Below are positions 6,724 to 58,972 of a stretch of 64,000 nucleotides of DNA, piece by piece (position 1 is the stretch's first letter; each line of letters begins with the position of its first letter). The notes beneath the pieces were generated by a model. It searched no databases, was not told the DNA's origin, and was given only the letters and a program-made list of their open reading frames with translations. Source of the stretch: Dehalococcoidia bacterium (GTDB lineage: Bacteria > Chloroflexota > Dehalococcoidia > Lucifugimonadales > UBA1127); contig OZ220679.1 in the NCBI GenBank assembly GCA_965116355.1, positions 94,669-158,668 of the forward strand, in the 5' to 3' direction. The translations under genes were made by a program, and so were the position numbers.

Positions 6724-8603
<1,880 letters not shown>

Positions 8604-9529: not shown

Positions 9530-9552
9530 ACGCCGTCCACCAGCCTTGACTC

Positions 9553-30050: not shown

Positions 30051-30089
30051 GCGCCGGACTATAGCACGAATAGTGGCGTGCCCCGCCTC

Positions 30090-31496
30090 CTACCTAGCAG
30101 GTTCCGGCGCAGCGCCGCCGGGGGCACGCTCGGGGCCGGGTTGGCGCCGGGGAGGGGCGGCCAGCAGCATGAGGCAGCCGGCGACGACCCATGCTGACGC
30201 GATGATGAGGAACGCCGTAGTGTACGAGTCCTGCAAGTCGAAGAGGAAGGCTATCAGGACAGGGCTCATCGCCCCCGCGGCTGTGATGAACGGCCGCATG
30301 ACACCGTTGATGGCGCCCAAGTGCGATCGGCCGAAGTAGTCGGCGACGAGCAGTCCCTGCAGCGTGATGAACGCGCCGATGGTCAGGCCGTGCAGGGCCG
30401 CGGCGATGAGCATGGAGGTCTGCCCGCCGACGTTGAGGATGAGCAGCACCGTCCCGGCGCTGAGGACAAGCTGCGGGCCAATGAGCCATCGGACAGACAC
30501 GCGCTCCGCAAGCAGGCCCCACACAGGGCGCAGGGCGACGGAGGCGATCGCGAAGGCTGTCCCGCTCAACGCGGCAACCTGTGCCGCCAAGCCGATGTCC
30601 TGGAAGTACGTCACAAGGTTGGCGTGGAAGCCGCCCATCCCGAGGCCCACCAGCATGAACGCGCCAACGATGAGCCAGAACGCCATCGTCCTGAGGCCCT
30701 CGCGGACCGTCAGCCCTTCCACCTCGCGCGTCGGGCGGGCGGGCGGCGGCGATGTTGGCGGTCGCCCTTCGACAGGCTCCGGGCGTCAACGGGTAAGGCG
30801 GCGGGAGTCAGCGACGAACGGGGAGCGGGGCTGCATTGGCTTGCACGGGCGGCGGGTCGTCCGGCTTGTCGCCGTCGGGCAGCAGGCCCATGTCCTCGGG
30901 CCGCGTGCGCACCATGAATGACACGGGCACCAGGATGCACAGCGCGGCCAGCCCCAGCGCGAACCACGCCTCGCGCCAGTCGAAGAGATCTATGAGGGCC
31001 TGGATGGAGATGGGGAAGAGCATGGGGCCGAGGCCCGGACCCATGGCGGCCAGCCCCAAAACGCGGCCACGTCTCCGTACGAACCACTTGGGCAGAATCA
31101 CCCGGGTGAGCGCGTTGATGCCGGATACCTGCGCGATGCCACCGAAGAGGCCAAAGAGCAGGTAGAACTGCCACAGGCTGTCCACCCACCGCGTCAGCAT
31201 CAGCGAGACGCCCAGCAGCACCGCGGACATCAGCATCAGCCGCCGCGGGCCGTTGCGCGTGTCCTGAATCGGGCCGACGATGGGCGCCAGCGCACCCCGC
31301 CACGAGCGTACGGACGGTCAGAGCGCCGAAGTAGCTGCGCCCGCGACCACCCGAGCGCCTCCGTCATCGGCCGCGCCATGACGCTCGCTCCCCAGACGCC
31401 CGCGCCCGTCGAGAACGAGCCGGCGATCATGGCGACGGCGAGGAGCACCCAGCCGTAATAGATGGTCGGGAATCGGAAGCCCTTGCGCTCGTTCAT
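30090..31496 (-). pseudogene. MFS transporter, tandem paralogue 2, with two frame changes near the N-terminus and a repeat-module insertion in the central loop
   Basis: It comprises three ORF pieces (31236..31505, 30808..31236, 30090..30722) in three different frames. Frame changes fall at ~31335 and ~31293. A module C copy at 30764-30793 lies between pieces 2 and 3, with stops in both relevant frames. Confidence 0.75.
30764..30793 (+). repeat. Module C copy inside the MFS paralogue-2 central loop
   Basis: GCCCTTCGACAGGCTCCGGGCGTCAACGGG. Relative to paralogue 1, the loop here is about 75 nt longer. Confidence 0.7.
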
Positions 31497-37042: not shown

Positions 37043-39413
37043 CGCCGGTTACCTCGTAGACCCGCACGTCGCCGTGGGCGAAGGCGGGCGAGAGGACGGG
37101 GGCGAGATGGTCGAGGCTGTCGACGGCGTACTTGCCGCGCTCCCGGGGGCCGAGGACGACGTAGCGGACGCCGTAGCGCTCGATGACGGCCTCGGCGGCA
37201 GCGGCGTCCTGCGCGCTGTACAGGGCGGCGACGGCCTCCGCGCGGCCGGTCTGCGGCTCGGAGGAGCCGCGCCACTGGAGCTCGTGGCCGGGCCAGTTCA
37301 GGGGCGAGGGCAGGCCGGTGAACGAGGCCACGCGCCCGAAGGTCGAGTAGTCGTCGCCCACGGCCTCGACGATGACGTCGCCGGCCTCGGCGTTGTCGCG
37401 CAGCCACTCGATGGCCGCGTGCTCGCCCGGATCCTGCTCGCGCAGGAAGGCCGTCGCGTCGAGGGTGTACTGGCTGCCGGAGGTTGCGTTCACTGTCAGC
37501 GTCATCCCCGCGGGAAGATAGAAGGCGCCCACAGCCAAGGCGGCGAAGCCGAGCGCTGCAGCCACACCCGCCCGGCGCAGCCACAGACCGCCTTGCAGGG
37601 CGCTCCGTATTCCAAAGTATAGGGTCAGGGGCGCGGCTACAGCAAGAACGGCCCACGCCTGATAGTAGAGCTTGAACACCGTGTTCATCCGGTTGCCGAA
37701 GAAATCGACAACGTAGTAGAGCTCCGGCCCCAACACAAGAGCGACACCCATTGCCGCCGCGCCGAGGACGAAGGCGAGGGCGGCGTCGCCCGCCCGCACT
37801 GTCGACGCGAGCAGCCACGCCAGCGCCAGCGAGAGGGGCAGCGCGACCCAGAGGCGGTCGGCGAGCTCCGCCGTCTCGCCGGTCACGAGCACGGGGCCAA
37901 GCCAGAGCACGAACGGCGCGAGGCCGAGGGCGGCCGCGATGAGGACGGGGCGATTACCCTTCGACAAGCTCAGGGCGAACGGGGGTGGGGCACTCAAGAG
38001 GAGCGGGGGTGGCGATAGGGTCAGGGCGAACGGCTTATCCGGCGCTCGCGAACGAAGGGACAGCGCAACGGCGGCAACCGGCAGGGCAAACACGCCCCAC
38101 ACGATGAGGAAGTGCAGCAACGACGTCCCCGGCGTCGTCACCAGAGCAACCCCCTTCACCTGCCCCGCAAGGGAGCCGGCGTAGTAGGGCAGGTAAGGCA
38201 CGATGCCGAGGAACAGCAGCGCACCGGCGATGCCCGCGGCCCACGCGACCGGACGTCTCTCGCCGTCGCGGGCGGCGCGGTAGGCGCGGAGCACTGCCGC
38301 ACCGGCGCCGATGGCGAGGAATACCGGCAGGTCCCATGCGTTGATGAACCCCAGTGCCCCCAATGACAGTCCCATCGCGAGCACGAAGGGCCAGCGCCGC
38401 CGCCACCATTCACCTTCGAGCGGGGTCTCGTCTGTGAGGAGGACGTAGGTGAAGGCCATGAACAGCAGGACGAAGGGGATGGACATAACATGCGGATGCA
38501 GGTCTCCGAGGAACCAGCTGAAGAAGGGGTACTCGTGGATGGTCGGGTCCAGGCTGAGCCCCTCGACGACGGTGTCGATGACGCGGCTGGAGCGCCACCA
38601 CCACCAGTGGTCGGACGGGAAGAAGGAGGCGCCGGCGGCGGGGGCATCGAGGCCCTTGATGCCGACGAATTCCCAGAAGCCCTGTGCGCCGATGCCCCAA
38701 GCGCGGAAAAGCTCGAACACGCCCTCCAGGTTGCCGAGGAAGCCCAACATCAGCGCGCCCAGCAGGCCGACGCCGAAGCCCGTCAGCAGCGTCGCGCCGA
38801 GGCGGACGGCGACGGTCGTGACGAGGCTGACGACGCCCATCGCGGCCATCGCGGGCAGCAGGGCGAGGGCGAGGTTGTAGACGTAGCCAGAGGGGATATC
38901 GGCAAGCACGCCGGGCAGGCCCATCGTCAGGTAGCCGAAGTAGTAGTAGCTGATGCCGTGGCCGGAGAGCCACGGGTCGCCCGGCGGGAACGCGGTCGCG
39001 ATCATGGAGGCGTTGAGGAAGGCGAAGTCCATTGGCTGCTCGGTGTGCAGGATGCCGGGCATGCCGGCGCGCATCAGCGCCCAGAGCGCGAATACCGCGA
39101 GGAACACGGCCTCCGTCGCCAGCAACAGCCGCCACTCGCGGCGGACGAAGGCCACCAGCTCCGGCCACATCCGCCGGGCGAGGACGGCCGCCGCGACGGC
39201 CAGTGCGACGACAACGAGGGCGGCGGTCGCGCGGGGGCCGAGGGGGACGTGGGCGCTGCCCAGCCACCACACGGGGAGCGCGAGCATCAGCATGCCGAGG
39301 GGCTTCGCGAAGCCGAAGCCGCGGTCGCGGAGGGCGGGGAACAGGGCGTAGGCGGCGGGGAAGGCCAGCAGGCCCAGCGCCTCGATGGTGAGGAGCCACA
39401 GGACGGCGTTCAT
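37035..39413 (-). CDS. DUF2298 / 'Chlor_Arch_YYY' family integral membrane protein
   Basis: 792 aa and highly hydrophobic. The hallmark is GISYYYFGYL (YYYxG motif). Confidence 0.75.
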   Translation of the reverse strand: MNAVLWLLTIEALGLLAFPAAYALFPALRDRGFGFAKPLGMLMLALPVWWLGSAHVPLGPRATAALVVVALAVAAAVLARRMWPELVAFVRREWRLLLATEAVFLAVFALWALMRAGMPGILHTEQPMDFAFLNASMIATAFPPGDPWLSGHGISYYYFGYLTMGLPGVLADIPSGYVYNLALALLPAMAAMGVVSLVTTVAVRLGATLLTGFGVGLLGALMLGFLGNLEGVFELFRAWGIGAQGFWEFVGIKGLDAPAAGASFFPSDHWWWWRSSRVIDTVVEGLSLDPTIHEYPFFSWFLGDLHPHVMSIPFVLLFMAFTYVLLTDETPLEGEWWRRRWPFVLAMGLSLGALGFINAWDLPVFLAIGAGAAVLRAYRAARDGERRPVAWAAGIAGALLFLGIVPYLPYYAGSLAGQVKGVALVTTPGTSLLHFLIVWGVFALPVAAVALSLRSRAPDKPFALTLSPPPLLLSAPPPFALSLSKGNRPVLIAAALGLAPFVLWLGPVLVTGETAELADRLWVALPLSLALAWLLASTVRAGDAALAFVLGAAAMGVALVLGPELYYVVDFFGNRMNTVFKLYYQAWAVLAVAAPLTLYFGIRSALQGGLWLRRAGVAAALGFAALAVGAFYLPAGMTLTVNATSGSQYTLDATAFLREQDPGEHAAIEWLRDNAEAGDVIVEAVGDDYSTFGRVASFTGLPSPLNWPGHELQWRGSSEPQTGRAEAVAALYSAQDAAAAEAVIERYGVRYVVLGPRERGKYAVDSLDHLAPVLSPAFAHGDVRVYEVTGDA
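37957..38033 (+). repeat. Two module C copies embedded in frame in the YYY gene
   Basis: CCCTTCGACAAGCTCAGGGCGAACGGGGG (37957-37985) and GATAGGGTCAGGGCGAACGG (38015-38033). On the minus strand they read ..PFALTLSPPPLLLSAPPPFALSLSKG.. Confidence 0.8.
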
Positions 39414-39474: not shown

Positions 39475-39522
39475 CCCTTCGACAGGCTCCTTCGACAAGC
39501 TCAGGACGGGGTCAGGGCGAAC
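39475..39522 (+). repeat. Mosaic repeat, multi-C copy between ftsY and the YYY gene
   Basis: CCCTTCGACAGGCTCCTTCGACAAGCTCAGGACGGGGTCAGGGCGAACGG. Confidence 0.8.
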
Positions 39523-39528
39523 GGACTC

Positions 39529-42656: not shown

Positions 42657-43331
42657 CTATCTCTCCGCGACCTCAATGTGCACGCGGCAGTGGTCACTGG
42701 GGCCCCAGTCCTCAGGGTTGTTGAGGGCGTGGACGGTGAGGCGGTGGGCGATGCTGCGGGACGCGAAGACGTAGTCAAGTTGCAACTCCGCGTCACTCGG
42801 CGTTTGTCGGTGTGGCTTGCTGTAGAAGGTCGGCGAGTGGGGACCGATTAGGGGCAAGCCCATGCGCATCATGTCGGCAAAGACTGTTGTGTCGCTGTCC
42901 CACCACGTCGTCAGGTCGCCGCCGACGATGTAGGGCAGGTTGACGCCGCAATGCTGCTGCATTTCCAGCAACAGTTTGGGTAGATCGGGAGACGTTCTGT
43001 GGGAGGCTTCAGCGGAAACAACCCCAAGCCTCTCGCCTTCCGCCGTCGTGACTGTGGCGACCGATGGGATGCAAATGTCGGAGGGGGCGACCGACGCCCT
43101 AAGGTCAGGCAGTGAAACCCGCTCGACCGTGACCCTGCCGGAGATGCCAACAACAGCTTCAGAGCAAGACCGCGGCCACGGGCCGGGTCCCACGTCGAGC
43201 TTTTCGGCCACATCATCGGGCGGCGTGCAGGCCTCCTGCAAGAGGGCGATGTCAACGTCGCTGTGATGCTCGCAAAGGAAATGCCAGCTTGCCCGCAAGC
43301 GCTGCATGTTCCAGCAGAGGATGTTTACCAT
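42657..43331 (-). CDS. EEP family protein, paralogue 2
   Basis: ILCWNMQR, ALLQEA, VGGDLT and WGPSDHCRVHIEV. The last ~28 codons are ~93% identical at the DNA level to paralogue 1. Confidence 0.75.
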   Translation of the reverse strand: MVNILCWNMQRLRASWHFLCEHHSDVDIALLQEACTPPDDVAEKLDVGPGPWPRSCSEAVVGISGRVTVERVSLPDLRASVAPSDICIPSVATVTTAEGERLGVVSAEASHRTSPDLPKLLLEMQQHCGVNLPYIVGGDLTTWWDSDTTVFADMMRMGLPLIGPHSPTFYSKPHRQTPSDAELQLDYVFASRSIAHRLTVHALNNPEDWGPSDHCRVHIEVAER

Positions 43332-43390
43332 CAGACTTCAGTGGGCAGCAATTCGACACATGCCTCCCAAGCTGCCGCTGTCCTCCGCCC

Positions 43391-43750
43391 CTACTCCTCG
43401 TGTTGGGTGGTGACGCTGTCTTTGCGGGTTACGGTGATGTGGGCGAAGTCGTGCTCGCCGTCCGCGCCGTGCCAGTGCTTCTCGCCGCCGGGCGAGAAGA
43501 TGACGTCGCCGGGCTCGAGCTCGACCTGCTCGGACTCCGTCGCGAAGACGCCTTTGCCATGGGTGACGATGAGGAGCTGGTCGCTGGTGTGGGTGTGGAA
43601 CTTGTTGCGCACGCCGTGCCCGAAGCCGACGACCGACGCGTTGAAGTCGGTGCTGTCGGGCGCGAGGGGCTGGCGGTAGACGTCCTCACTGGTGAACAGC
43701 GGGGATGCCGCGGACTCCTTGGGGACCTCGCTGATTTTGGACTTCTTCAT
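43391..43750 (-). CDS. Cupin-domain protein
   Basis: FHTHTSDQLLIVTHGKG...PGDVIFSPGGEKHWHGA are the two cupin motifs. Start at ATG 43748-43750, with GGAGGA upstream. Confidence 0.85.
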   Translation of the reverse strand: MKKSKISEVPKESAASPLFTSEDVYRQPLAPDSTDFNASVVGFGHGVRNKFHTHTSDQLLIVTHGKGVFATESEQVELEPGDVIFSPGGEKHWHGADGEHDFAHITVTRKDSVTTQHEE

Positions 43751-43783
43751 GGTGTCCTCCTTTGTGTTTTCAGGGGCGCATCC

Positions 43784-43817
43784 GTCGGGGTTCCTGCCTT
43801 CGCAGGAACGACGGGGG
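43784..43817 (+). repeat. Hairpin module A, solitary copy
   Basis: GTCGGGGTTCCTGCCTTCGCAGGAACGACGGGGG, between the SDR and cupin genes. Confidence 0.85.
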
Positions 43818-43821
43818 TGGG

Positions 43822-44568
43822 CTAGCGCATCAGGCCGCCGCCGTCGCAGATGATGCTCTGGCCGCTGATCATCGCGGCGTCGTCGCTGGCCATGAAGGCG
43901 ATGAGGGCGGCGAGGTGCTCCGGGTAGACGCGCTGCTTGATCGCCTGGTTCTGCATCGTGCGGTTGAAGGTCTCCTCGTCGGAGTGGGCCATGGTGCCGG
44001 GCGTGGCGACCTGGCCGGGCATGACGGCGTTCACGGTGATGCCGTCGGCGCCGGCCTCCTTGCACAGCGTCCACGTGAGGCCCTGGATGGCGCCCTTGCT
44101 GGCGGTGTAGGGGAACTGGCCCGGCGCGCCCGCGAAGGTGGTCCGCGACGCGACGTTGATGATGCGCCCGTTGCCGCTCTCCTTGATGTACGGGTACGCG
44201 GCGCGGGTGGTGTGGACGTAGCCCATGTAGTTCACCTGCATGAACCGCTCGACGTCCTCCGTCTTCCAGTCCATGAAGTGGACGCGCGGCGACAGCAGGC
44301 CCGCGTTGTTGACGAGGATGTTGATGCCGCCGAAGCGCCCGGCGACCTCCCCCATCACCTGGGCGAGCTGCTCCTCGTTGGTTGTGTCACAGACCCACGC
44401 CTGGGCCTCGCCGCCCGACGACGCGATGGCCGCGACGGTGTCGTCGCAGTCCTTGATGTCGAGGGCGGCGACCTTCACGCCCTCCTCGCCGAGCCTGAGC
44501 GCGGCGGCGGCGCCCATGCCGCCATGCGCGCCGGTGACCACGGCCACTCTTCCCTGAAGACCCCTCAT
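43822..44568 (-). CDS. SDR family oxidoreductase
   Basis: VAVVTGAHGGMGAA (TGxxxGxG), NNAG, and YTASKGAIQGL (YxxxK). Confidence 0.9.
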   Translation of the reverse strand: MRGLQGRVAVVTGAHGGMGAAAALRLGEEGVKVAALDIKDCDDTVAAIASSGGEAQAWVCDTTNEEQLAQVMGEVAGRFGGINILVNNAGLLSPRVHFMDWKTEDVERFMQVNYMGYVHTTRAAYPYIKESGNGRIINVASRTTFAGAPGQFPYTASKGAIQGLTWTLCKEAGADGITVNAVMPGQVATPGTMAHSDEETFNRTMQNQAIKQRVYPEHLAALIAFMASDDAAMISGQSIICDGGGLMR

Positions 44569-44628
44569 GCGTACTGTTCCTCCCGGTTTGGTCTAGCTTG
44601 CCTTGATTGTCATTCGCCCATTCCCTAG

Positions 44629-44822
44629 CCTTTCGACAGGCTCAGGGCGAACGGGTTTCCCCCATTCTAACCTTCCCCCAAGAGAGAGGAAGGGACTTGG
44701 GCGCCGCTCCGTTTGGCGGGGTTCCTGCCTGCGCAGGAACGACGGGAGGCGTTCGCCCTTCGATTTCCCTCAGGGTGAACGGGGCCGGTTTGTTGGGGTA
44801 CCTGCCTCCGCAGGAACGACGG
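44629..44822 (+). repeat. Composite mosaic repeat C-A-C-A
   Basis: Module C at 44629-44655, A at 44716-44746, C at 44756-44784, A at 44782-44822. The last A supplies the 3' end of the PNPOx-like ORF. Confidence 0.85.
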
Positions 44823-45336
44823 AGCGGCGAGGCGGCTTGTAGGCCGTGCCTCGCTGCTCCGGTGTCCGCTGGTCTATGTACTCCAGCATCGGGACGCCGT
44901 AGCCGCAGCTGGTGACTGTGCTGTCGACGGCGACCTCGATGACCTGCCGCTTGCGGAGGCCGATGGACTCGTCGGCGCTGTGCTCCAAGAGCATTGGCGC
45001 GAGGGGCGACTCGTCGAGGGGCGTCACCGTCGCTTTGCCGAACAGGCGGACGACGGCCGCGTTCTCCTGCTCGAAGGAGCAGACCATCAGCGTCATCGGC
45101 CCGCCGGCGTTCGCGTGCCGTGCGGTCTCGTTGCCGCTGCCGCCGAAGTCGAGGTAGGCGACGCGGTTGGGGCCGAGCACGTGCAGCGGCACGCCGCCCT
45201 TGGGCGACAGGTTGACCGGCCCGACGCCCTCCGGCCCCTCGCCGAGGGACGGGTCTGCGCTCGCCACGAAGAAGAGGTGCGCGTTGCGGATGAGCTCCGC
45301 CTGTTCGCCGGTGATGGCACGGAAATACGTCGCCAT
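44770..45336 (-). CDS. Pyridoxamine 5'-phosphate oxidase-like FMN-binding family protein
   Basis: AELIRNAHLFFVASAD..VNLSPKGG..YLDFGGSGNETARH fits the PNPOx-like split-barrel family. The C-terminal ..RRSVVPAEAGTPTNRPRSP is encoded by repeat module A. Confidence 0.65.
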   Translation of the reverse strand: MATYFRAITGEQAELIRNAHLFFVASADPSLGEGPEGVGPVNLSPKGGVPLHVLGPNRVAYLDFGGSGNETARHANAGGPMTLMVCSFEQENAAVVRLFGKATVTPLDESPLAPMLLEHSADESIGLRKRQVIEVAVDSTVTSCGYGVPMLEYIDQRTPEQRGTAYKPPRRSVVPAEAGTPTNRPRSP

Positions 45337-45357
45337 GGTGCGCCTCCTCCATGCGCG

Positions 45358-45408
45358 GCCCTTCGAGAGCCTCAGGACATGCCCTTCGACAAGCTCAGGG
45401 CGAACGGG
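45358..45408 (+). repeat. Mosaic repeat, double module C
   Basis: GCCCTTCGAGAGCCTCAGGACATGCCCTTCGACAAGCTCAGGGCGAACGGG. Confidence 0.85.
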
Positions 45409-45491
45409 CGCGCAGGTCCGCTAAACCGCGGTTCCGCGGGGCCATGATAGCAACGGGTCTCGGGAGCGTCCACAGCGCGGGAGCCGGTCGC

Positions 45492-46295
45492 CTATGCGCG
45501 CCGCGCCCTTCCAATGAGCGCCAGGAACGCCATCGTCATGCTCACACTGCCGACCAGCGCAATGGCGCCGAACCCGAGGAGGATGTCGGTCCACACCCAG
45601 CCCTCGGTGACCAGGGAGCGCAGACCATCGAGAAGGTAGGTGACGGGATTGTAGGTTGCGATGGCCTGCAGCCAGCCGGTCATCGCCTCCAACGGCACAA
45701 AGATGGTTGTCAGGAATATGAACGGGAAGAAGAGCAGGAAGCTCACGTTGACGGCCGCGGGGTTGCCCGTCTTGAGGGCAATTGCGTACGGGAACCCCGT
45801 GAAGGCCAGTCCCCAGGCGCCGGCCATAGCCATGAACAGGAGGATGCCAAGGATGCCGCTTTCAAAGCGCACGCCGACGGCGTATCCGAGGATGAGCACC
45901 GGGATAGTCAGGGCGACCACCAGCGCGATGTCAGCCACCATGAGGCCCAGCAACAGCGAAAACCGGCTAACCGGCGTCAACGCGAGCCGGTCAAAGTAGC
46001 CGGTCTGGATGTCCGTCACGAGGGTGATGGCGCGGGAAATGCCGGTGACGGCGAAGATGATGGCAACGGGAAGCTGGAATGCCTTGAAGTCAAGCCCGGG
46101 TATCTCCTCCGCAAGGTCCTGCAGCGCGCCGATGTTCACGGCGAAGAAGAAAATGGGGATGACCAGCGCCGGGTAGACGGCCTCGGGGTCGCGAGGGACA
46201 GAGCGCAGCGCGCGGCCGGCGACGGACATAACGTCGCGGTGGAAGCCGGCGTGCCGGGCACGGACCTCGGTTGGGGCTGGTGCGCTAGTCGCCAT
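45492..46295 (-). CDS. ABC-2 type transporter permease (DrrB-like)
   Basis: 267 aa with 6 hydrophobic segments. 11-nt overlap with the upstream ATPase gene. Confidence 0.8.
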   Translation of the reverse strand: MATSAPAPTEVRARHAGFHRDVMSVAGRALRSVPRDPEAVYPALVIPIFFFAVNIGALQDLAEEIPGLDFKAFQLPVAIIFAVTGISRAITLVTDIQTGYFDRLALTPVSRFSLLLGLMVADIALVVALTIPVLILGYAVGVRFESGILGILLFMAMAGAWGLAFTGFPYAIALKTGNPAAVNVSFLLFFPFIFLTTIFVPLEAMTGWLQAIATYNPVTYLLDGLRSLVTEGWVWTDILLGFGAIALVGSVSMTMAFLALIGRARRA

Positions 46296-47256
46296 CTGCT
46301 TGCTCCTCCGTGCCTACCTCTTCAAAGCGCTCGCCCGTGACGCTGAGGAAGACGTCGTCAAGGGTCGGCGTGTGCATGCGTATCTCGCGCAGCTCAACGC
46401 CGTTCCGGTTCAAGGCCAGCGCGACGGGGCCGATCTGCGCGGAGCCGTTCGTGACACGCACGACGACCTCATTGCCGTAGACGTCCACCTGCTCGATGGA
46501 CGGCAGCGCGCCGACGGCGAGCCGGGCCTCCTCGGCGTCGCCGTCCACCTGCGCGATGATCACATCGGCGCCCATCGAGCGCTTGAGCTCGGCGGGCGTG
46601 CCCTCGGCGGCGAGGACGCCCTGGTTGATGATGCCGACGCGGTCGGCGAGCTGGTCGGCTTCCTCCAGGTACTGCGTCGTCAGGAAGATGGTGACGCCCA
46701 GCTCCTTGTTGACGCGGCGGACCTCCTCCCACACGCGGGAGCGGCTGATCGGGTCGAGGCCGGTCGTTGGCTCGTCGAGGAAGAGGACCTCGGGGTTGTG
46801 GATGAGCGCAGCGGCGAGGTCCAAGCGGCGCTTCATTCCGCCGGAGTAAGTGCTGATAAAGCGCGACATGGCATCGCCGATGTCCACCAGCGAGGCCAGC
46901 TCGTCGACGCGGCGGCGGACCTGGCGCCCCGTCAGGCCGTACAGGAAGCCCTGCAGGCGAAGGAACTCGATGCCCGTCTGCTTTGGGTCGAGGGCGGTGT
47001 CCTGGAGGGCGGCACCGATGCGCAGGCGAATCTCCTTCGCGTCGGACACGAGCTCACGGCCGACGACCCACGCCTGGCCGGCAGTCGGCAGCAGCAGCGT
47101 GATGAGCATGCGCACGAGCGTCGTCTTGCCGGCGCCGTTGGGGCCGAGAAAGCCGTAAATCTCACCCTTGCCGATGTCGAGGTCGACGCCGTTGACGGCC
47201 TTGACCTCGCCAAAAGAGCGAGAGATTCCGGACGCATAGATAGCCCAATCGTTCAA
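46285..47256 (-). CDS. ABC transporter ATP-binding protein (DrrA-like)
   Basis: [12 protein letters not shown] (Walker A), YSGGMKRRL (signature) and [11 protein letters not shown] (Walker B). The start is uncertain: I chose TTG 47256, and the track ORF starts at 47331. Confidence 0.85.
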
Positions 47257-47380
47257 TGCGGTAACTTCCAAAGGTGAGGTTAACCGTGACCTTTCCAGTG
47301 TACGGAGAGGCGTCAGGCAGGCGCAAGGCAATACACGGAATCACGACATTCCAAGAGGGAATGGAGCGGCCGGCGGCGCG

Positions 47381-47779
47381 CTACCGGTAGGTCAGCAGCT
47401 CCTCCAGCCGGGCTACGAAACGGGCCACGTGTGCGAGCGAGTCACGGACGTAGGGGCGCTCGAGCCAGCTCTCATAGAAGTTGGTGTGGAGGCTGCTTGC
47501 CAACTGGAATTGCATCCGCGCTTCGGGGGCCTTGAGCTCGTCAACCAGGCGGTTGACCACGCGGAACAGGTCTCGAACGCTCTCGTGTTGCCAGCCGCGC
47601 TCTTCGGCGACCGCCTTCACGATGGTGACTGCCGCGCCCCAGCCGTGGCCGGAGGCCTCTCCCAGTTCACCTCTATCGAACTCTTCCGCGGCTGCGGCCA
47701 GGTACTTTCGGCTCTGGTCGAGATAGATGGTCTGCGCCGACATGACGTAGCCGTCCCTGGTCAAGTATCTGCTCTCCAT
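47381..47779 (-). CDS. PaREP1/PaREP8-like four-helix protein (copy 1)
   Basis: ..GELGEASGHGWGAAVTIVKAVAEERGW.H.S.RDLF..V..L......LHTNFYESWL. The family call is from memory of the Pfam PaREP1 pattern. GAGGAG lies 9 nt upstream of ATG 47779. An alternative start is at 47743. Confidence 0.55.
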   Translation of the reverse strand: MESRYLTRDGYVMSAQTIYLDQSRKYLAAAAEEFDRGELGEASGHGWGAAVTIVKAVAEERGWQHESVRDLFRVVNRLVDELKAPEARMQFQLASSLHTNFYESWLERPYVRDSLAHVARFVARLEELLTYR

Positions 47780-47928
47780 ATCCGGTGGCTCCTCAATGGG
47801 AGTCCAGCATTCACGTATTCAATATAGCGCAAATCACGGGCGTGGGAAAGGGAGCAGGCCCAAATCTGCGGCGATTGGCGGGGGAATTGGTGGGCGCGGG
47901 GTTGTCGACGGCGGGAGCGGGGACGCGG

Positions 47929-48291
47929 CTACTGCGATTGCAACAGTCCTTCCACACGATTGACCAACTCCGTCACCTGACCCAGCGACCGCTCAACGGC
48001 GTCGCGCTCCAACCAGCCCTCGTAGAAGTTCCTGTGGAGCCCGCTGGCGGTCTGAAAGAGCATGGGCAAGTCCATGTCGCCGGTCTCCGCCGCAAGCTGG
48101 TTGACGGCGAGGAACAAGTCCCGGTGGGCATCGTGCGTCAGGTCACGCTCATCCGCAGCGGCCTTGACCATTTCCGCCACAGCTCCCCAACCCTTCTCGG
48201 AGGCTTGGCACAGGTCGCCCCTGGCAAGCTCCTCACCGGCTTGGGTGAGGTAGGTCCGGCTTTGACTACGATAGAAGGACCGGGTTGTCAT
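47929..48291 (-). CDS. PaREP1/PaREP8-like four-helix protein (copy 2)
   Basis: MTTRSFYRSQSRTYLTQAGEELARGDLCQASEKGWGAVAEMVKAAADERDL.H..HRDLF....LHRNFYEGWL. Confidence 0.55.
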   Translation of the reverse strand: MTTRSFYRSQSRTYLTQAGEELARGDLCQASEKGWGAVAEMVKAAADERDLTHDAHRDLFLAVNQLAAETGDMDLPMLFQTASGLHRNFYEGWLERDAVERSLGQVTELVNRVEGLLQSQ

Positions 48292-48395
48292 CGGGCGTGG
48301 CTCCGTTAAGACTTGGACAACGCAAGTCCATTCTAGCAAACGTACCGACGTGCCGCCAATGAAGGCGGCATCTTTCGACCGCTACGCGTTTTCAG

Positions 48396-49712
48396 TCAGG
48401 ACGTCGTGTTCTCTATGCCGGGGTGGACGACGAAGGCCTTGCGCAGCTCCTCCGTGGCCTCCAGCCAGTCGGCGTCGCGGGGCAGGATGACGCCGCCGGA
48501 GCGCACCTGGTAGAGCTCGGGGTTGTCGACGGCGGGAGCGGGGACGCCCTCCTGCAGGGAGCGGGCGGCGTTGATGAGCCGCTGGCGCGTCTTGATGATC
48601 ATGCCGTCGCTGGTGCCGAGCCGCTCGCGGGTGCGGTCGACGATGGGGTCCATACTCTCAGTGATGGCCTGGTCCTGCATGTGGATGCCGGCGATGCCCG
48701 TGAAGCTCTTGTTGCGCTGGGCATCGCGGTCGATGTAGTAGTCGTTGGCCTTGTTGGCCTCGAAGCGGTGGCGCTCCAGCCAGCCGGTGCCGTCGGGGAG
48801 CTTGCCTCGCGCGCCGCCGAGGCCCACGAGCGGGTTGCCGTTGACGTCCCTGCGGGCCATGGAGCTGTTGGTGTTGCGGATGGACATGCTGGTGAACATC
48901 GTGTGGTTGTCGTCGACGGGCACCCAGCAGCGCACGCCGATCTTCTCGCCGAGGCGGCCCTCCGGCGGGATGGTGTAGAAGGGCATCATGAACTGGGCGA
49001 TGCGCCAGTAGTAGGTGTCGTCCTCCGCCGGGCGGTAGGCGCCGTACATGGTGCCGTAGTCCGTCTCGACGATCTTGTAGTGGGGCGCCTTCTCGCGCTG
49101 GTTGTAGTAATCGAAGGTGCCGGGCAGGACGTCGTCCGCGGCCACCTTCCCGAGGTGCAGGAAGGTCAGGTGGGCGGTGTCGATGTCGCCCTCCATCGCC
49201 TGCACCCAGTTGCACTCGCGGAGGCCGGCGGAGTTGGAGTCGACGCTCTCCTCCATCATGTTGGGCTCGATGTCCGGCAGCGGCGGCAGGACCTCGCGCG
49301 GGCCCATGTAGGCCCAGATCATGCCGTTGCGCTCGGCCATCCTGTAAGCCTTGATCTTGACCTTGTCCTTGAAGTTGGACTCGGCGGGCTCCGAGGGCAT
49401 GTCGACGCAATCGCCGTTCACGTCGAACTTCCAGCCGTGATAGACACAGCGGATGCCGCACTCCTCGTTTCGGCCGAAGAAGAGGCTCGCGCGGCGGTGG
49501 GGGCAGTAGTTGTCGATGAGGCCGAGCTCGCCGTTGGTGTCACGGAAGGCGATGAGGTCCTCGCCCAGCAGGCGCAGGCGGACGGGGTCGCTGTCGGGCC
49601 CGGGCAGCTCGGTGGAGAGCAGCGCGGGGATCCAGTACTCGCGCAGAAGGTCGCCCATCGGCGTGCCGGGGCCGACGCGCGTGAGGGTCTCGTTGTCGTG
49701 CTGTGAGAGCAT
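48396..49712 (-). CDS. Rieske [2Fe-2S] non-heme-iron oxygenase, alpha-subunit type (paralogue 2)
   Basis: CPHRRASL..CVYHGWKF. The N-terminus MLSQHDNETLTRVGPGTPMG parallels paralogue 1. Confidence 0.9.
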   Translation of the reverse strand: MLSQHDNETLTRVGPGTPMGDLLREYWIPALLSTELPGPDSDPVRLRLLGEDLIAFRDTNGELGLIDNYCPHRRASLFFGRNEECGIRCVYHGWKFDVNGDCVDMPSEPAESNFKDKVKIKAYRMAERNGMIWAYMGPREVLPPLPDIEPNMMEESVDSNSAGLRECNWVQAMEGDIDTAHLTFLHLGKVAADDVLPGTFDYYNQREKAPHYKIVETDYGTMYGAYRPAEDDTYYWRIAQFMMPFYTIPPEGRLGEKIGVRCWVPVDDNHTMFTSMSIRNTNSSMARRDVNGNPLVGLGGARGKLPDGTGWLERHRFEANKANDYYIDRDAQRNKSFTGIAGIHMQDQAITESMDPIVDRTRERLGTSDGMIIKTRQRLINAARSLQEGVPAPAVDNPELYQVRSGGVILPRDADWLEATEELRKAFVVHPGIENTTS

Positions 49713-49812
49713 TCGCTCCTCCTTCGAGGCGTGTTGCTAGCAGTCTAGGAAGCGAGCGTGGGCGCGTCAAGGACGGCGTGGCAGGAGGTAGGGGGTCAGG
49801 GCGCGGGGGCGG

Positions 49813-50005
49813 CCCTTCGACAGGCTCAGGGCGAACAGGGAAGGTAACAGTGGCCCTAAGGCGGGCATCCTGGATGCCCGCCTTCGCGGGAATGACGGTG
49901 GTGGTGGTCCTGGGTACCGGCTTCCGCCGGTGAAACGAGAGAAGGCGAGGGCAGGCTCCTTCGACAGGGCTCAGGACGGGGTCAAGACGGGATCAGGGCG
50001 AACGG
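49813..50005 (+). repeat. Composite mosaic repeat C-A'-B-C-C
   Basis: Module C at 49813-49839. Variant hairpin GGCGGGCATCC-TG-GATGCCCGCC..CGCGGGAATGACGG. Module B is GGTACCGGCTTCCGCCGGTGAAACGAG. A double C runs to 50005. Confidence 0.8.
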
Positions 50006-50059
50006 ATTGCGCTTGCCCGCACATTGGCGGCGTGCTAGCCTCGCCGCGAGGAGGACGCC

Positions 50060-50440
50060 ATGACTGTGTACACGTACGACCACATGCACCTGCGCAGCCG
50101 GGACCCGATGGCGACGGCGCGCTATTTCGAGACGATGTTCGGGGCCGAGGTGCTCGAGTCCGTGCAGTCCGATGGGCAGCCGCGGGTGGACCTCGACCTG
50201 AACGGCCTCACCATCTTCATCGCGCGGGCCGGGGACAACGTGCCGGAGGGGCCCAGCGAGCCCTACACGGGCCTCGACCACTTCGGCCTGCGAGTGGACG
50301 ACATCTTCACGGCGGCTGAGGAGCTGAAGGCCAAGGGCGCCGAGTTCTCGACGGAGCCGTTCCAACTGCGGCCGGGGGTCAAGATTGCCTTCGTGAAGGC
50401 GCCGGGGAACATCCGCATCGAGCTGCTTGAGCGGGGGTAG
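50060..50440 (+). CDS. Glyoxalase/bleomycin-resistance/dioxygenase (VOC) family protein
   Basis: 126 aa. YDHMHLRSRD..YFETMFGAEV...GLDHFGLRVDD...IRIELLE is the VOC beta-alpha-beta-beta-beta pattern. Confidence 0.8.
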   Translation: MTVYTYDHMHLRSRDPMATARYFETMFGAEVLESVQSDGQPRVDLDLNGLTIFIARAGDNVPEGPSEPYTGLDHFGLRVDDIFTAAEELKAKGAEFSTEPFQLRPGVKIAFVKAPGNIRIELLERG

Positions 50441-50462
50441 GCGGCTGCGCGCTGCCGTTCAC

Positions 50463-50858
50463 CCCCTTCGAGAGCCTCAGGACAGGCCCTTCGTCAGGCT
50501 CAGGACAGGCTTCGATTTCCCTCAGGGCGAATGGGGGGCGGGCGTCGCTCCGTTTGTCGGGGTTCCTGCCTGCGCAGGAACGACGGGGGTGGGGCCCCTG
50601 GACACCGGCTTCCGCCGGTGAAACGAGGGGAGGCGGGGGCGGCCCTTCGACATGCCCAGTGCGAACGGGAGGTCGGACGTCGCTCCGTTTGTCGGGGTTC
50701 CTGCCTGCGCAGGAACGACGGGGGCGGGGCCCCTGGACACCGGCTTCCGCCGGTGAAACGAGGGGAGGCGGGGGCGGCCCTTCGACATGCCCAGTGCGAA
50801 CGGGAGGTCGGGCGTCGCTCCGTTTGTCGGGGTTCCTGCCTGCGCAGGAACGACGGGG
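50463..50858 (+). repeat. Composite mosaic-repeat array C-C-C then (A-B-C)x2 then A, with a 135-nt tandem period
   Basis: GTCGCTCCGTTTGTCGGGGTTCCTGCC starts at 50544, 50679 and 50814. Units 1 and 2 differ at 2 of 135 positions. The array ends exactly at the stop codon (50859-50861) of the FtsX-type permease. Confidence 0.92.
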
Positions 50859-53800
50859 TTACTCGTAGCGGAGGGCTTCCGCGGGGGAGACGTCGGCGGC
50901 CTGGCGGGCGGGGAGGAACGTCGTCAGCAGGGAGAAGACGTAGGCGCCGGCGGCGATCAGGAGAATCTTGGCCAGCGGCAATGAGAATCGGAGGTCCGGC
51001 TCATCCTCCCGCAGCTCGAAGATGAGGTTGACGGAGGAGACAAGACCGAGCCCCAAGCCCACCCCGATGCCCAGCAGGGCGATGAAGGACGATTCCGCGA
51101 GGAAGCTCAGGTTCACCATGCCGCGGGAGAAGCCAATCGCGCGGAGCACGCCGATCTCGTGGCGGCGCTCGACGACGGCGCGGGCGCTGATGACGCCGAG
51201 CGCGGCGATGCCCACCACGAGGCCGAGCGACATGAAGCCGATGAGCAGGTTGAAGAGCGCGCGGTTCGATTCCTGCGCGCTCTCGACTGTCTCGATCACG
51301 TCTATGGTCTCAATGCCGTGCTGGAAGAAGGCCGACTCGATGATGTTGGCGCCGTTCTCGGCGTCGTCGCTCACGTTGAAGAAGAACTGCGTCGCGTCCG
51401 CCTCGCGGCCAAGGGTTTGCTCGGACGTGTAGAAGCCGACGGGAATTGGTCCGCTGGAGGCAAAGGTGTCCAGCACCGCGATCACGGTCAGGTCCACCGA
51501 CTCTCCAACCTCAAGGTCCCTGACCGTCACCGCCACTGGGTCCATGACCTCATCTTCCAGGTAGAAGTCAGGCACGCCTTCCAGTGTGAACCGGTTGAAC
51601 TCCTGCTGGAACGCAAAGTTGTTCCTGGTTGGCACAAGGAGTGAATTAACAACGGCCAGGCCGGGATTGGCCCGCAACGCCTCCCAGACGGCCCTGGCGT
51701 CCGCCTCGCCGTCGACGGTGTACTCAGGGGTGGTCAGGGCGATTGTGAACCTGTTAGTCGCCAGGAAGGCGTCGTCGACGCCGACGATGACGGTGTCCGC
51801 GTAGTCGCCGTCTGTGTCGGACGTCAGCCGGCCGTCGGCCTGGAAGACGGCGTGGAACGTGCCCACCGAGGGCCTGCCGTCAACGCGCTCGACGATGTCC
51901 AAGTCCGGGTTGGCCTCGACGACCGCCTGGACGTCGGCGACGGGGTTGAGGTCGCTGCGGGCGTAGCCGATGACCTCGTAGCCGCCGCCGAGCCGCTCCT
52001 GGTTCTCGAAGAGGTTGTCGAAGGCGTCGAGGAGCGTCGCCATGAGCGTGACGGAGAAGATGACGATGGCGAACATGGCCAACGACAGGCCCGTGCGGTA
52101 GCCAAAGCGGAGGGGGTAGGACACCGCGGACTTGACCACCGGCGAGAAGCGCCTGATCCGCCCAAGGGTGTTGGTCATCAGTCCCAGCACGAGGGGCGAG
52201 TTGTTGATGGTCACCAGCACCGCCCCGGTAACGAGCATGACGCCGGAGGCGAAGAAGGAACTAAAGTCCTCATTCCACTCGCCGCCCCTGATCGCGTTCA
52301 TCGTGCCGTGGGGGATGAGCCAGTAGGCCACCAGGAGAATGCCGACCACCGTGAAGGTCCATCGCTGGGATGCTCCAAGGGAACGCGCCACCATGCCGGA
52401 CCCGAGGATGGTCAGGGAGACCCCGAGGCCGAAGCTCGTGAGGTGGTTGCCGTTCCACCCCGCCATGAGGAGCAACAGGCCAATGACCGCAACGGCAACG
52501 GCCTGAATCATGGCTCGAATGCGGGACCGGGTCACGGCAGCTTCAGGCAGGTCCCGAATGGCCTGCACGATGTTGAGCCGGCTGATTCGGCGCGAGGACA
52601 TGTAGACCGTGACGAACGTGAGCACGGAGCCGACCAGGAAGGATACAAGGAAGCTGACGGGCTGCGCGTGCGGCGTAAGGCTGAAGTCCCCCGGGGCCCC
52701 TTGCTCGAATATCGAGGCGACACCCTCGACGAGGAGCATTCCCAGCCCGATGCCGATGGCTGCGCCGATGAACGCGGAGCCGACTCCGTAGATGGAGCCC
52801 TCGACCGTGAACATCCGCACCAGGTGGTGACGCTGCATGCCGATGGCTCGCGACATGCCCATTTCGGTCTTCCGCTCGGCGGCCAGCATGGAGAAGATGA
52901 GGAAGATCAGCAGCAGCCCGACGCCGATGGAGAACAGGCCGAATGTGGTGAAGAAGGAGACGAAGAGGCTTCCCACCGCATTGGCCGTGTCCAGGACATC
53001 CTGCTTGATGGGAATGATCTCCAGGCCCTGGCCCTCAATCTCTTCGTGGAACTCGTATCGGTCGACGATGGTCTGGCTCAGTTCAACGCCCGCGGTGGCG
53101 TCGCCGGCGTTGGAGATCAGCAGCGAGGAGAGCTCGCCGGGCCGGTCGAGCAGCGCCTGTACGTTGCCGAGGGACATCATCAGGATGACGTCCGTGCCCG
53201 TCCCGCTGAAATAGGAATCTTCAACAATGCCGCCAATCGCGATGGGGGTGGGGGCTCCCGGCCCGAAGAACACGTTGAGCGTGCCGCCGACAGCCACCTC
53301 GAGCTCGTCCGCGCCGTCGCGGGTGATGTAGGCGGTGTTGTCCGTGAGGCCCGCAAGATCGACGGGGTTGCCATCCTCGTCAAAGAGCTCCTCAAAGCTC
53401 TCCGCGCGAGTCGAATGCAGTCCCGCCAGCAGCGCGCCGGACTCGAACTGCCGGCTGTCGGGGTTGATGACGGCGACGTCCTCGGTCAGGGCGGGCAGCA
53501 CACCGTCGACGTCCGGGTCGGCGTCAAGGGCCGCCTCCAGCGCGAGGACGCTGTCGGCGGAGAAGCCCTTCGGCAGCTCGCGGCCCTCCCACAGCTCCGA
53601 GTCCTCGTCGACGACTACGAACTCGTCGAGGGAGCGGAGGGACTCGGTGGCGACGCGCTTGATGCTGTACGAAACGGAGTCGCCGACGGTGAAGGCGCTG
53701 GAGATGATGGCCGTCGCAAGCATGAGGCCCGTGAGGATGAGGAGGCTCTGGCCCGGACGGCGGCGGGCGTTCCGGACGGCCATGCGCACGAGGATGGGGT

Positions 53801-53900
53801 TGCGGAGCCTGACAAAGAGCAGGAAGGCCATTGCGAAAGCGAAGATGACGGCCAACACCGCCGCGATGTTTTCGATGGGCGCCCCAAATAGCTCGTCCAT
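50859..53900 (-). CDS. ABC transporter permease with duplicated FtsX domains (MacB-like)
   Basis: 1013 aa. Two blocks of 4 TM segments are separated by large extracytoplasmic regions. The start lies 4 nt after the ATPase stop. Confidence 0.85.
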   Translation of the reverse strand: MDELFGAPIENIAAVLAVIFAFAMAFLLFVRLRNPILVRMAVRNARRRPGQSLLILTGLMLATAIISSAFTVGDSVSYSIKRVATESLRSLDEFVVVDEDSELWEGRELPKGFSADSVLALEAALDADPDVDGVLPALTEDVAVINPDSRQFESGALLAGLHSTRAESFEELFDEDGNPVDLAGLTDNTAYITRDGADELEVAVGGTLNVFFGPGAPTPIAIGGIVEDSYFSGTGTDVILMMSLGNVQALLDRPGELSSLLISNAGDATAGVELSQTIVDRYEFHEEIEGQGLEIIPIKQDVLDTANAVGSLFVSFFTTFGLFSIGVGLLLIFLIFSMLAAERKTEMGMSRAIGMQRHHLVRMFTVEGSIYGVGSAFIGAAIGIGLGMLLVEGVASIFEQGAPGDFSLTPHAQPVSFLVSFLVGSVLTFVTVYMSSRRISRLNIVQAIRDLPEAAVTRSRIRAMIQAVAVAVIGLLLLMAGWNGNHLTSFGLGVSLTILGSGMVARSLGASQRWTFTVVGILLVAYWLIPHGTMNAIRGGEWNEDFSSFFASGVMLVTGAVLVTINNSPLVLGLMTNTLGRIRRFSPVVKSAVSYPLRFGYRTGLSLAMFAIVIFSVTLMATLLDAFDNLFENQERLGGGYEVIGYARSDLNPVADVQAVVEANPDLDIVERVDGRPSVGTFHAVFQADGRLTSDTDGDYADTVIVGVDDAFLATNRFTIALTTPEYTVDGEADARAVWEALRANPGLAVVNSLLVPTRNNFAFQQEFNRFTLEGVPDFYLEDEVMDPVAVTVRDLEVGESVDLTVIAVLDTFASSGPIPVGFYTSEQTLGREADATQFFFNVSDDAENGANIIESAFFQHGIETIDVIETVESAQESNRALFNLLIGFMSLGLVVGIAALGVISARAVVERRHEIGVLRAIGFSRGMVNLSFLAESSFIALLGIGVGLGLGLVSSVNLIFELREDEPDLRFSLPLAKILLIAAGAYVFSLLTTFLPARQAADVSPAEALRYE

Positions 53901-58888: not shown

Positions 58889-58946
58889 CCACAAGGGCCG
58901 CCCCTACGGGGGGCGCGTGGGTTCCCGCCTGCGCGGGAACGACGGG
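58889..58946 (+). repeat. GC hairpin (GGGCGGCC-ACAA-GGCCGCCC) plus a hairpin-A variant
   Basis: GTGGGTTCCCGCCTGCGCGGGAACGACGGG at 58917-58946 (stem TTCCCGC/GCGGGAA). Confidence 0.7.
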
Positions 58947-58972
58947 AGTGGGGCGTGGGAGTGGGGCGGGAG

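Follow-up and report, generated by a model that had tools for sequence, protein, structure and literature searches.

Polar mosaic arrays of Ssn-related hairpins, with a candidate cognate GIY-YIG nuclease, in a Dehalococcoidia genome

Two published systems are closest to the repeats described here. Members of the CGTC-tagged superfamily of repetitive extragenic palindromes (REPs) carry their tag ahead of a stem of 8-9 bp with a loop of 4-5 nt and end in a CCA tail, and the stems of the CGTC-1 members 'almost invariably' open with A-T pairs at the first and second positions (Di Nocera, De Gregorio & Rocco 2013, PMC3733652). The NTS or Ssn-related motif, with the consensus CGTCATTCCCGCGMAVGCGGGAATCYRG, is bound and cut by the GIY-YIG nuclease SsnA, which acts on single-stranded DNA (ssDNA) only and on the CGTC strand only, a few nucleotides upstream of the motif, and is inactive on duplex DNA and RNA (Chenal et al. 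2025, Nat Commun 16:2388, PMC11893778). The single-strand, CGTC-strand-only action holds for the Neisseria and Wolbachia enzymes, and no RNA binding was found for Neisseria SsnA (PMC11893778). Here we analysed a stretch of 64,000 nucleotides from a Dehalococcoidia bacterium (contig OZ220679.1; hereafter the window), in which three short modules, A, B and C, recur in arrays. One array, at 50463-50858 on the plus strand, had been flagged in an earlier note made by eye. We propose, as the probable explanation of the whole, that Ssn motifs and their cognate nuclease occur here in polar mosaic arrays, and that the polarity is set by replication-associated exposure of ssDNA.

Read on the minus strand, module A has the form CGTC-GTTCCTGC-GCAG-GCAGGAAC-CCC and module B the form CGTT-TCACCGGC-GGAA-GCCGGTGT-CCA. 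The minus strand is thus the one that carries the CGTC side of A and B in the flagged array, the side recognised by Ssn. When the A-type copies of the window were pooled with those of 88 related loci, a perfect 8-bp stem was found in 185 of 213 copies, and six stem variants change on both sides with the pairing preserved. The stem GTTCCTGC/GCAGGAAC accounts for 138 copies, ATTCCTGC/GCAGGAAT for 19, GTTCCCGC/GCGGGAAC for 14, ATTCCCGC/GCGGGAAT for seven and GCCCCTGC/GCAGGGGC for four. Among the 203 well-paired copies the tag is CGTC in 186 and TGTC in four; the loop is GGAG, GAAG or GCAG, and the tail is CCC (120 copies), CTC (40) or CCA (33), with a C directly after the palindrome. The main stem opens with a G-C and then a T-A pair, while the variants that start with AT form a minority (19 + 7 + 2 copies). 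Folded as DNA, the A and B hairpins are stable, with z about -3. In its tag, stem, loop and tail, module A fits both the published NTS consensus and the definition of the CGTC-1 REPs, and A and B are therefore Ssn-related motifs, that is, CGTC-tagged REP hairpins, which the earlier note had not recognised. A textbook CGTC-1 hairpin is also present at 49872-49900, where the reverse complement reads CGTC ATTCCCGC GAAG GCGGGCAT CCA.

The exact 27-nt core of module A was found in at least 88 stretches, from about 20 metagenome-assembled genomes (MAGs) of Dehalococcoidia, SAR202 or other Chloroflexota, long-read chromosomes included; the 88 related loci are among the matches listed for this core. 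The earlier note had allowed that the elements might be assembly artefacts. Since the same modules occur in many independent assemblies, at least 20 of them, and in long-read chromosomes, that alternative falls away. It belongs together with a second conservative reading, in which the repeats are classical REPs or bacterial interspersed mosaic elements (BIMEs) served by a Y1 transposase of the REP-associated (RAYT) or IS200 type. A mosaic of hairpin repeats in intergenic DNA is what either would look like. The tag, however, is CGTC and not GTAG, the gene flanked by the hairpins encodes a GIY-YIG nuclease (see below), and among the CGTC repeats studied by Di Nocera et al. none flanked a RAYT gene (PMC3733652). 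No Y1 transposase was detected among roughly 30 window proteins scanned, a subset of the window ORFs (open reading frames). We consider either version barely credible. In a separate observation, one contig with the exact 27-nt core (L029) is binned as Burkholderiales, for which mis-binning or transfer is possible.

The window itself encodes an enzyme that is the candidate partner of the A and B hairpins. The gene at 5094-5402 on the minus strand, an ssnA homologue, encodes a 102-aa single-domain GIY-YIG nuclease; Pfam PF01541 (E=7e-15) covers residues 12-84, and no other domain was detected in the ORF. The protein is identical to the 94-aa SsnA of N. gonorrhoeae, the orthologue of the meningococcal enzyme, at 56 of 87 positions (64%; E=1e-43), and 5282 homologues were found. 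In an alignment of 29 homologues including the window protein, Y14, Y25, G27, R35, H39, E72 and N91 are invariant or nearly so, and with them the catalytic GIY and YIG tyrosines and the metal-binding residue are conserved. Searches of NCBIfam and of the PDB sequences with the window SsnA gave no match.

The gene is flanked by inverted copies of A with their tags outward. The upstream copy, at 5425-5464 on the plus strand, is the variant hairpin GCCCCTGC/GCAGGGGC with compensatory stem changes, its CGTC tag facing outward on the gene strand; the downstream copy, at 5057-5090 on the minus strand, lies about 4 nt past the stop codon with its tag (GACG) outward. The earlier note had listed an element at 5060-5089 as an exception to the common orientation of the modules. 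The exception stands and now has an explanation: it is the sole minus-oriented A in the window because it is the 3' flanking motif of ssnA. The related locus L184, whose SsnA is 86% identical, has the arrangement hairpin-26 nt-ssnA-3 nt-hairpin between the same neighbour genes, which points to vertical inheritance of ssnA at this position. The gene occupies this shared position even though its GC content is 51.5% (64% at third codon positions, GC3), as compared to 66.8% for the window. Relative to L184, the window has gained 444 nt (5461-5904), containing a further A copy at the edge of the insertion (5489-5528, plus strand), a DUF433 gene absent from L184 (5509-5745, minus strand; Pfam PF04255, E=5e-10) and a C'' variant of module C. 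The segment resembles a small gene cassette inserted beside an Ssn motif. No further ssnA copy was found near the A repeats in the 88 related loci, which fits one or a few copies of the gene per genome.

To place this arrangement among its homologues, we surveyed 84 ssnA genes, consisting of 80 metagenome loci picked by protein similarity alone and the loci L089-L091. Under strict criteria, tagged hairpins occur at 7.58 per kb in the immediate ssnA flanks and at 0.18 per kb beyond 500 bp. The canonical motif-ssnA-motif arrangement was present in 38 of the 84 genes, and only 8 had no flanking hairpin at all. In most of these genes, one hairpin precedes the start codon by about 33 nt, and a second, whose loop is the reverse complement, follows the stop codon at a distance of about 13 nt. 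Their stems vary among ssnA loci (ATTCCGGC, ATTCCCGC, ATTCCTGC, ATTCCAGC, ACACCGGC, GTCCCCGC and others) and match across a given gene. The same flanks are found at the ssnA genes of S. meliloti, N. aromaticivorans, A. lipoferum and N. gonorrhoeae, and the cultured hosts of homologues (Neisseria, Sinorhizobium, Novosphingobium, Azospirillum, Sphingobium and Rhizobium) are largely those with described CGTC repeats (cf. PMC3733652). This survey is an independent replication of the link reported by Chenal et al., who found at least one motif near 71% of Ssn homologues and motifs on both sides of 42% (PMC11893778). The association of the GIY-YIG gene with the hairpins is therefore not a novel finding, having been published in 2025, and the window adds a Chloroflexota member.

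Three of the loci show variations on the unit. On plasmid AZO_p3 of Azospirillum lipoferum 4B (L175), ssnA with hairpin dimers on both sides lies between sufB and sufC in the suf operon. In L091 (10390-10620), a second, truncated ssnA keeps only about its first 40 codons and its upstream hairpin; another hairpin comes immediately after it, and the whole resembles a deletion derivative of the motif-gene-motif unit. In S. meliloti (L173, 1330-1960), about 130 nt upstream of ssnA, hairpin included, are repeated directly downstream, so that the gene and one hairpin lie between direct repeats.

The third module, C, is GCCCTTCGACAGGCTCAGGGCGAACGG, with a potential 5-bp stem (GCCCT/AGGGC) followed by GAACGG. 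Some copies carry compensatory variants (GTCC/GGAC, GTGG/CCAC and GTGC/GCAC), but the pairing is imperfect and has no thermodynamic signal, so these variants are only suggestive of pairing. C is a lineage-specific third module of the arrays.

An exact or near-exact search tolerating up to 3 mismatches, with shuffled sequence as the null, found nine copies of A (eight on the plus strand, and one on the minus strand at 5057-5089), four of B and ten of C, all B and C copies on the plus strand; none was expected by chance. Profile hidden Markov models built from the window copies raised these numbers to 13 for A (12 plus, 1 minus), 6 for B and 12 for C, the B and C copies again all on the plus strand. 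A relaxed C-core pattern matched 18 times on the plus strand and once on the minus strand, as compared to 0.7 expected on both strands together; the lone minus-strand match, inside ftsY, is probably due to chance. With the variants that this pattern missed, the C-type copies total about 20 or more. The earlier note's counts by eye thus hold for B (at least six) and for C (more than 20), whereas its figure of at least 14 for A was slightly high. Altogether the modules span about 1.9 kb, or 3%, of the window in 17 clusters.

The flagged array at 50463-50858 has the order C' C' C'' A B C A B C A, in which the modules follow one another head-to-tail. It contains a 135-nt A-B-C unit in tandem (50533-50667 and 50668-50802; the pair spans 50533-50802) with 97% identity, indicating a recent tandem duplication, and a 160-nt C-A-B unit is duplicated at 10973-11300 with 96-98% identity. 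Within the window the transitions between modules are C to A (5), A to B (4), B to C (4) and C to B (1). Because the C-A-B order occurs in three window arrays with differing spacers, the syntax amounts to more than one duplicated block. In the related loci the order is looser: A to A 28, C to A 14, A to C 9 and C to C 12. The earlier note's picture of a genuine BIME-like mosaic with a recurrent order and strict polarity was therefore borne out, while its 'fixed syntax' is strict in the window genome, partly through tandem duplication, and loose in relatives.

The modules are also strictly polar. In each of the 87 pairs of adjacent modules with a spacing of at most 120 nt (16/16 in the window and 71/71 in the related loci), both members point the same way, and the sole inverted pair is the one around ssnA. 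The A copies of any one of the 88 related loci nearly always share an orientation, which is also that of C. About 92% of the called window genes lie on the minus strand by a crude GC3-based gene call, so the earlier note was right about the minus-strand majority, although its estimate of about 85% differs.

The earlier note had considered an RNA-level role, with the hairpins as 3' stabilisers or terminators for transcripts of the minus strand. In the general form of this reading, which also allows for processing sites, transcription sets the orientation of the elements. Many copies do lie just downstream of stop codons, including two that the earlier note had pointed out and that we confirmed: the last A of the flagged array ends at 50858, and the complement (TTA) of the TAA stop of an FtsX-type permease gene (50859-53900, minus strand) occupies 50859-50861; likewise, a C'' variant (CTTTTGATTTCCCTCAAGGCGAACGGGG; 5870-5904, plus strand) ends at 5904 against the complement (CTA) of the TAG stop, at 5905-5907, of the gene at 5905-6726 (minus strand). 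Stable hairpins would form in RNA too, and E. coli REPs stabilise upstream mRNA. However, tabulated against flanking genes, as the earlier note had suggested, A repeats of the 88 related loci lie between genes that both run in the direction of A in 61 cases and between genes that both run against it in 40, with 33 convergent and 21 divergent settings, and the majority gene strand does not predict A orientation (odds ratio, OR, 0.77; p=0.65). Since orientation is independent of flanking-gene direction, the combination of plus-strand repeats and minus-strand genes in the window reflects no transcription rule. Arrays are also found in a divergent promoter region (49798-50010) and within ORFs, the hairpins lack a downstream T-tract, and a terminator scan of 43000-51500 called none of the A or B hairpins as an intrinsic terminator. 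An Rfam scan of the window detected a tRNA alone, and the modules match no known RNA family. Given in addition that SsnA does not bind RNA (PMC11893778), an RNA-level role is highly unlikely as the cause of the polarity. A side effect of the hairpins on mRNA is possible, yet it leaves the polarity unexplained.

Orientation instead follows strand composition. Skew was measured in neighbouring genes free of repeats, and GC3 skew was corrected for a coding effect of -0.10. The orientation of A was associated with gene-body GC skew at all codon positions (OR 7.6; Fisher p=4e-5, Mann-Whitney p=9e-8) and with coding-corrected GC3 skew (OR 9.9, p=3e-6). Where the absolute skew exceeded 0.15, A was concordant with GC3 skew in 35 of 37 loci, and C orientation was concordant in 18 of 20. 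The resulting rule places the CGTC strand on the C-rich strand of the local skew, and the ssnA loci L089 and L090 agree with it (15:1 and 12:1). In the window, GC3 skew on the plus strand is about +0.15 to +0.25 throughout, being positive for the minus-strand genes and for both plus-strand genes. On the related chromosome OX638292.1 (L088, L039 and L083) it reaches 0.35-0.79, with the same sign for genes of both strands. As GC3 skew is the usual proxy for replication direction, and probably reports it here, these data indicate that the earlier note's suggestion of a replication-strand signal pointed the right way, as did the comparison with GC skew that it had proposed.

The polarity might still be a by-product of local amplification, through tandem duplication or short-range copying in the same orientation, with no link to replication or to Ssn. 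The 135-nt and 160-nt tandem units, at 96-98% identity, are products that such a process would leave, and on OZ242210.1 the repeat orientation is patchy and flips within about 25-40 kb. Against this, the window holds about 16 separate clusters, intergenic or intragenic, in one orientation over 58 kb, with only one cluster on the minus strand. Furthermore, orientation predicts the sign of GC3 skew of repeat-free neighbour genes in many genomes, and this agreement across independent loci shows that local copying is insufficient. We regard local amplification as quite unlikely to be the whole account.

We return to replication-linked exposure of ssDNA as the preferred explanation. Because Ssn acts on an ssDNA hairpin and on the CGTC strand only, the orientation of its motif on the chromosome has consequences. 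The earlier note had also raised an ssDNA-acting mechanism, and the known activity of the Ssn family (cd10448), which binds and cuts only ssDNA and one motif strand (PMC11893778), gives that idea substance. In the proposed scheme, A and B would be the DNA partners of the small GIY-YIG nuclease Ssn encoded at 5094-5402 on the minus strand. Together with module C, these hairpins form head-to-tail mosaic arrays that are intergenic, often placed at stop codons and occasionally in frame in genes. Composite units are duplicated in tandem, which makes the arrays grow, and array turnover among related genomes is quick. The CGTC strand is kept on the C-rich strand independently of gene direction, and the exposure of one strand as ssDNA during replication would set this polarity.

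Several points weigh against this explanation. Cutting of the CGTC strand by the window Ssn is an extrapolation from the Neisseria and Wolbachia enzymes. Module C, for which no link to Ssn was detected, shows no significant folding (z about -0.1) and was missing from all the ssnA loci analysed (L089-L091 plus the 80 metagenome loci), and the related locus L091 breaks the skew rule. The gene calls behind the skew values come from the crude GC3 method and not from a trained gene finder. In related chromosomes the skew flips over 100-200 kb, together with the repeat orientation, which leaves a simple two-replichore picture in doubt; inversions could be the source of these flips. A 400-kb sample of N. 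gonorrhoeae had no strand bias, with 7 versus 7 motifs and adjacent pairs mostly opposite, although the sample is small (14 motifs). This absence of bias implies that the polarity is a feature of the lineage and is not inherent to Ssn systems. Finally, the proxies for fork direction conflict. By a common rule, the leading strand is the G-rich one, and its sequence is that of the lagging-strand template; by another, genes favour the leading strand. The G-rich strand of the window is the plus strand, yet the C-rich strand is the sense strand for 96% of the window coding bases, and the same conflict appears, at 57% of coding bases, in 49 skewed related loci. The direction of tRNA genes was no help as a third proxy, as only 6 tRNAs were found, too few to inform.

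Each proxy leads to a different account of why the orientation is maintained. If the G-rich strand is leading, the exposed strand carries the complement that Ssn does not recognise, which suggests selection against self-cleavage: copies with the CGTC strand on the lagging-strand template would be cut and selected against, and the survivors would be those with the CGTC strand on the template that is copied continuously. The observed placement of the CGTC strand on the C-rich strand, which by the usual rule leaves the non-recognised complement exposed, is what this account expects, and the only opposite A in the window is the obligatory flank of ssnA. It also fits the finding that Ssn cuts ssDNA alone and one motif strand alone (PMC11893778). 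On the other hand, N. gonorrhoeae, with its active SsnA, is unbiased in the small sample (7:7), and the gene-strand bias of the window and of the related loci gives the opposite leading-strand assignment. Avoidance of self-cleavage thus remains a tentative account.

The rule that genes favour the leading strand gives that opposite assignment, which resembles the placement of the IS200/IS605 active strand on the lagging-strand template. For IS608, the active strand lies on the lagging-strand template and orientation is tied to the replication fork. In an account of this kind, the lagging-strand template would be both the source and the target of hairpin units that Ssn excises or copies, as in IS200/IS605 and REP/RAYT systems, and new copies would thereby be fixed in orientation with respect to the fork. 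If genes mark the leading strand, the CGTC strand does lie on the lagging-strand template, like the active strand of IS608. The atypical GC content of ssnA, its position between sufB and sufC in A. lipoferum, and the presence or absence of arrays among relatives, with one junction inside a stop codon (TAA versus TAG), would also suit mobilisation. Moreover, the motif-ssnA-motif unit resembles an insertion sequence, as Chenal et al. also remark (PMC11893778). Conversely, ssnA shares its position with the relative L184, pointing to vertical inheritance, plain tandem duplication lies behind much of the array growth, and the sign is opposite to that which the GC-skew rule would require. Nor do we know of any strand-transfer or ligation activity in a 100-aa nuclease, or of any Ssn for which transposition has been shown. 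We consider mobilisation unlikely, more so than avoidance.

Speculating further, the Ssn motif and its companion modules, held in one orientation with respect to the replication fork, might be the first in-genome sign of Ssn acting on replication-exposed ssDNA. This could take the form either of a GIY-YIG 'peel-and-paste' single-strand mobilisation of hairpin units, or of a chromosome organised so that its own nuclease spares the lagging-strand template, and the extreme, patchy GC3 skew may belong to the same phenomenon. We offer this only as a tentative idea.

Comparison with relatives revealed the differences in presence and absence that the earlier note had proposed to look for. At the flagged site, L185 has 69 nt where the window has a 419-nt array. 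The neighbouring glyoxalase of L185 is 98% identical to that of the window as protein and 88% identical as DNA, and homology restarts exactly at the permease stop, which is TAG in L185 and TAA in the window. Upstream of the glyoxalase gene, at the site of the window array 49798-50010, L185 has 67 nt with a single C'', as compared to 241 nt in the window. L186 bears a different head-to-tail array at the flagged site (10380-10860), composed of C units and a module of about 60 nt unseen in the window. Thus, the arrays are gained, lost and remodelled fast, while ssnA keeps a conserved position. Near its array (6784-9920), L186 also has two rve-type integrase genes.

The remaining copies in the window are distributed as follows, all on the plus strand unless stated. 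The array at 10949-11355 has the order C' C A B C A B (C) C and lies upstream of a Rieske/LigXa gene (9553-10851, minus strand). The array between divergent genes at 49798-50010 contains C, the CGTC-1 hairpin described above, B (49905-49943) and C-like units. The Rieske/LigXa gene has a paralogue at 48396-49712, with about 70% DNA identity over parts, and a mosaic array (10949-11355 and 49798-50010, respectively) lies just upstream of each start codon. A single A at 43779-43819 sits between two minus-strand genes, 5 nt from the stop of a short-chain dehydrogenase gene (43822-44547), and an array C A C'' A lies at 44627-44822. C' C doublets are found at 45359-45410 and 917-969, an A variant with the stem GTTCCCGC/GCGGGAAC at 58919-58950, a C''-like variant with compensatory stem changes (GTGC...GCAC) at 1319-1358, and a degenerate C-type doublet at 39478-39524 between the DUF2298 gene and ftsY. 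A composite palindrome, GTCGGGGTTCC...GGAACCCCGAC, occupies 3696-3757 without strand assignment; its left half resembles the start of a plus-strand A and its right half the end of a minus-strand A.

Modules also occur in frame in three ORFs, and these copies are oriented like the intergenic ones. B-like and C-like modules at 2951-3027 encode the peptide PEPVEG...VSPAKAGAQG at the N-terminus of a HerA-like ORF, a C'' at 4311-4350 encodes PPFALREIEGE inside a NurA-like ORF, and two C modules at 37955-38032 encode PFALTLS...PFALSLSKG in a loop of the DUF2298 membrane-protein ORF. The rest of the window is ordinary chromosome, with genes for HerA/NurA, SelB, PriA, NADH-dehydrogenase-like subunits, FtsY, Asd and CinA, nearly all on the minus strand. 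At 28757-31300 there are two tandem paralogous gene blocks with about 76-82% identity and an offset of about 1.4 kb, which have no relation to the modules.

The repeats have been known since 2013 and the enzyme since 2025. New with respect to the literature searched are the strict head-to-tail order, the coupling of orientation to strand composition, the lineage-specific module C with its in-frame copies in three genes, and the occurrence in Chloroflexota. Chromosome-strand polarity was not examined by Chenal et al. (PMC11893778). A motif that shows about 95% polarity relative to strand composition raises the testable idea that Ssn meets its sites at the replication fork, and so addresses the in vivo role of Ssn beyond Neisseria. 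This idea bears on how CGTC-type repeats spread, a question since 2013, on whether a 100-aa GIY-YIG enzyme can mobilise DNA, and on the organisation of repeat-rich, possibly symbiotic genomes. If the polarity were due to local amplification only, the window would simply add one more pair of Ssn and repeat, in a new phylum. In practical terms, the repeats create spurious or chimeric ORFs (the PFALSLSKG and PAKAGAQ peptides), and masking them is advisable in MAG annotation.

Among the known systems, the Ssn/NTS pair (PMC11893778) is like the window system in its single-domain GIY-YIG enzyme of about 100 aa, to which the window protein is 64% identical in Neisseria, and in the CGTC tag, 8-bp stem, 4-nt loop and the C straight after the palindrome. 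In both, inverted motifs flank the gene and the motif is amplified in the genome. The window lineage may also be symbiotic, as several related bin names hint at sponge metagenomes, a hint that is unverified. The two differ in host phylum, Chloroflexota not being named in the main text of that paper, and in the stem, which opens GT...AC in the window and AT...AT in the published motif. The window copies are strictly head-to-tail and follow GC skew, whereas those of N. gonorrhoeae, in a small sample, are unbiased and often form inverted pairs. The window arrays contain the unrelated module C, and natural transformation is without evidence in the window lineage.

The CGTC REPs (PMC3733652) share with the window the tag, the stem and loop lengths and a short tail (CCA in B and in the hairpin at 49872-49900), the presence of several hairpin types in one genome, and some copies in genes, including repair genes (HerA and NurA in the window). 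However, the published REPs are mostly head-to-head dimers, with head-to-tail pairs negligible and clusters rare, while window pairs are all head-to-tail and arrays are common. Di Nocera et al. concluded that these REPs have no dedicated enzyme (PMC3733652), whereas the window has ssnA. The Neisseria intergenic mosaic elements (RS units bounded by dRS3) are likewise intergenic arrays, in which 50-150-nt units alternate with a 20-bp hairpin core now known as the Ssn motif. Their dRS3 are described as inverted repeats bounding each unit (see also PMC11893778), in contrast to the direct, polar modules of the window.

The E. coli REP/BIME elements with their RAYT (TnpA-REP) and the IS200/IS605 family resemble the window in combining hairpin repeats with other motifs in mosaics, in having a small nuclease gene between inverted repeat copies, and in the recognition of a folded ssDNA hairpin. 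They differ in the fold of the enzyme, which is GIY-YIG for the window and Ssn and HUH/Y1 for REP/RAYT and IS200/IS605, and in the tag, CGTC as compared to GTAG. Transposition, the hallmark of IS200/IS605, is not shown for Ssn. The REPs of a BIME alternate in orientation, whereas the window copies are direct only.

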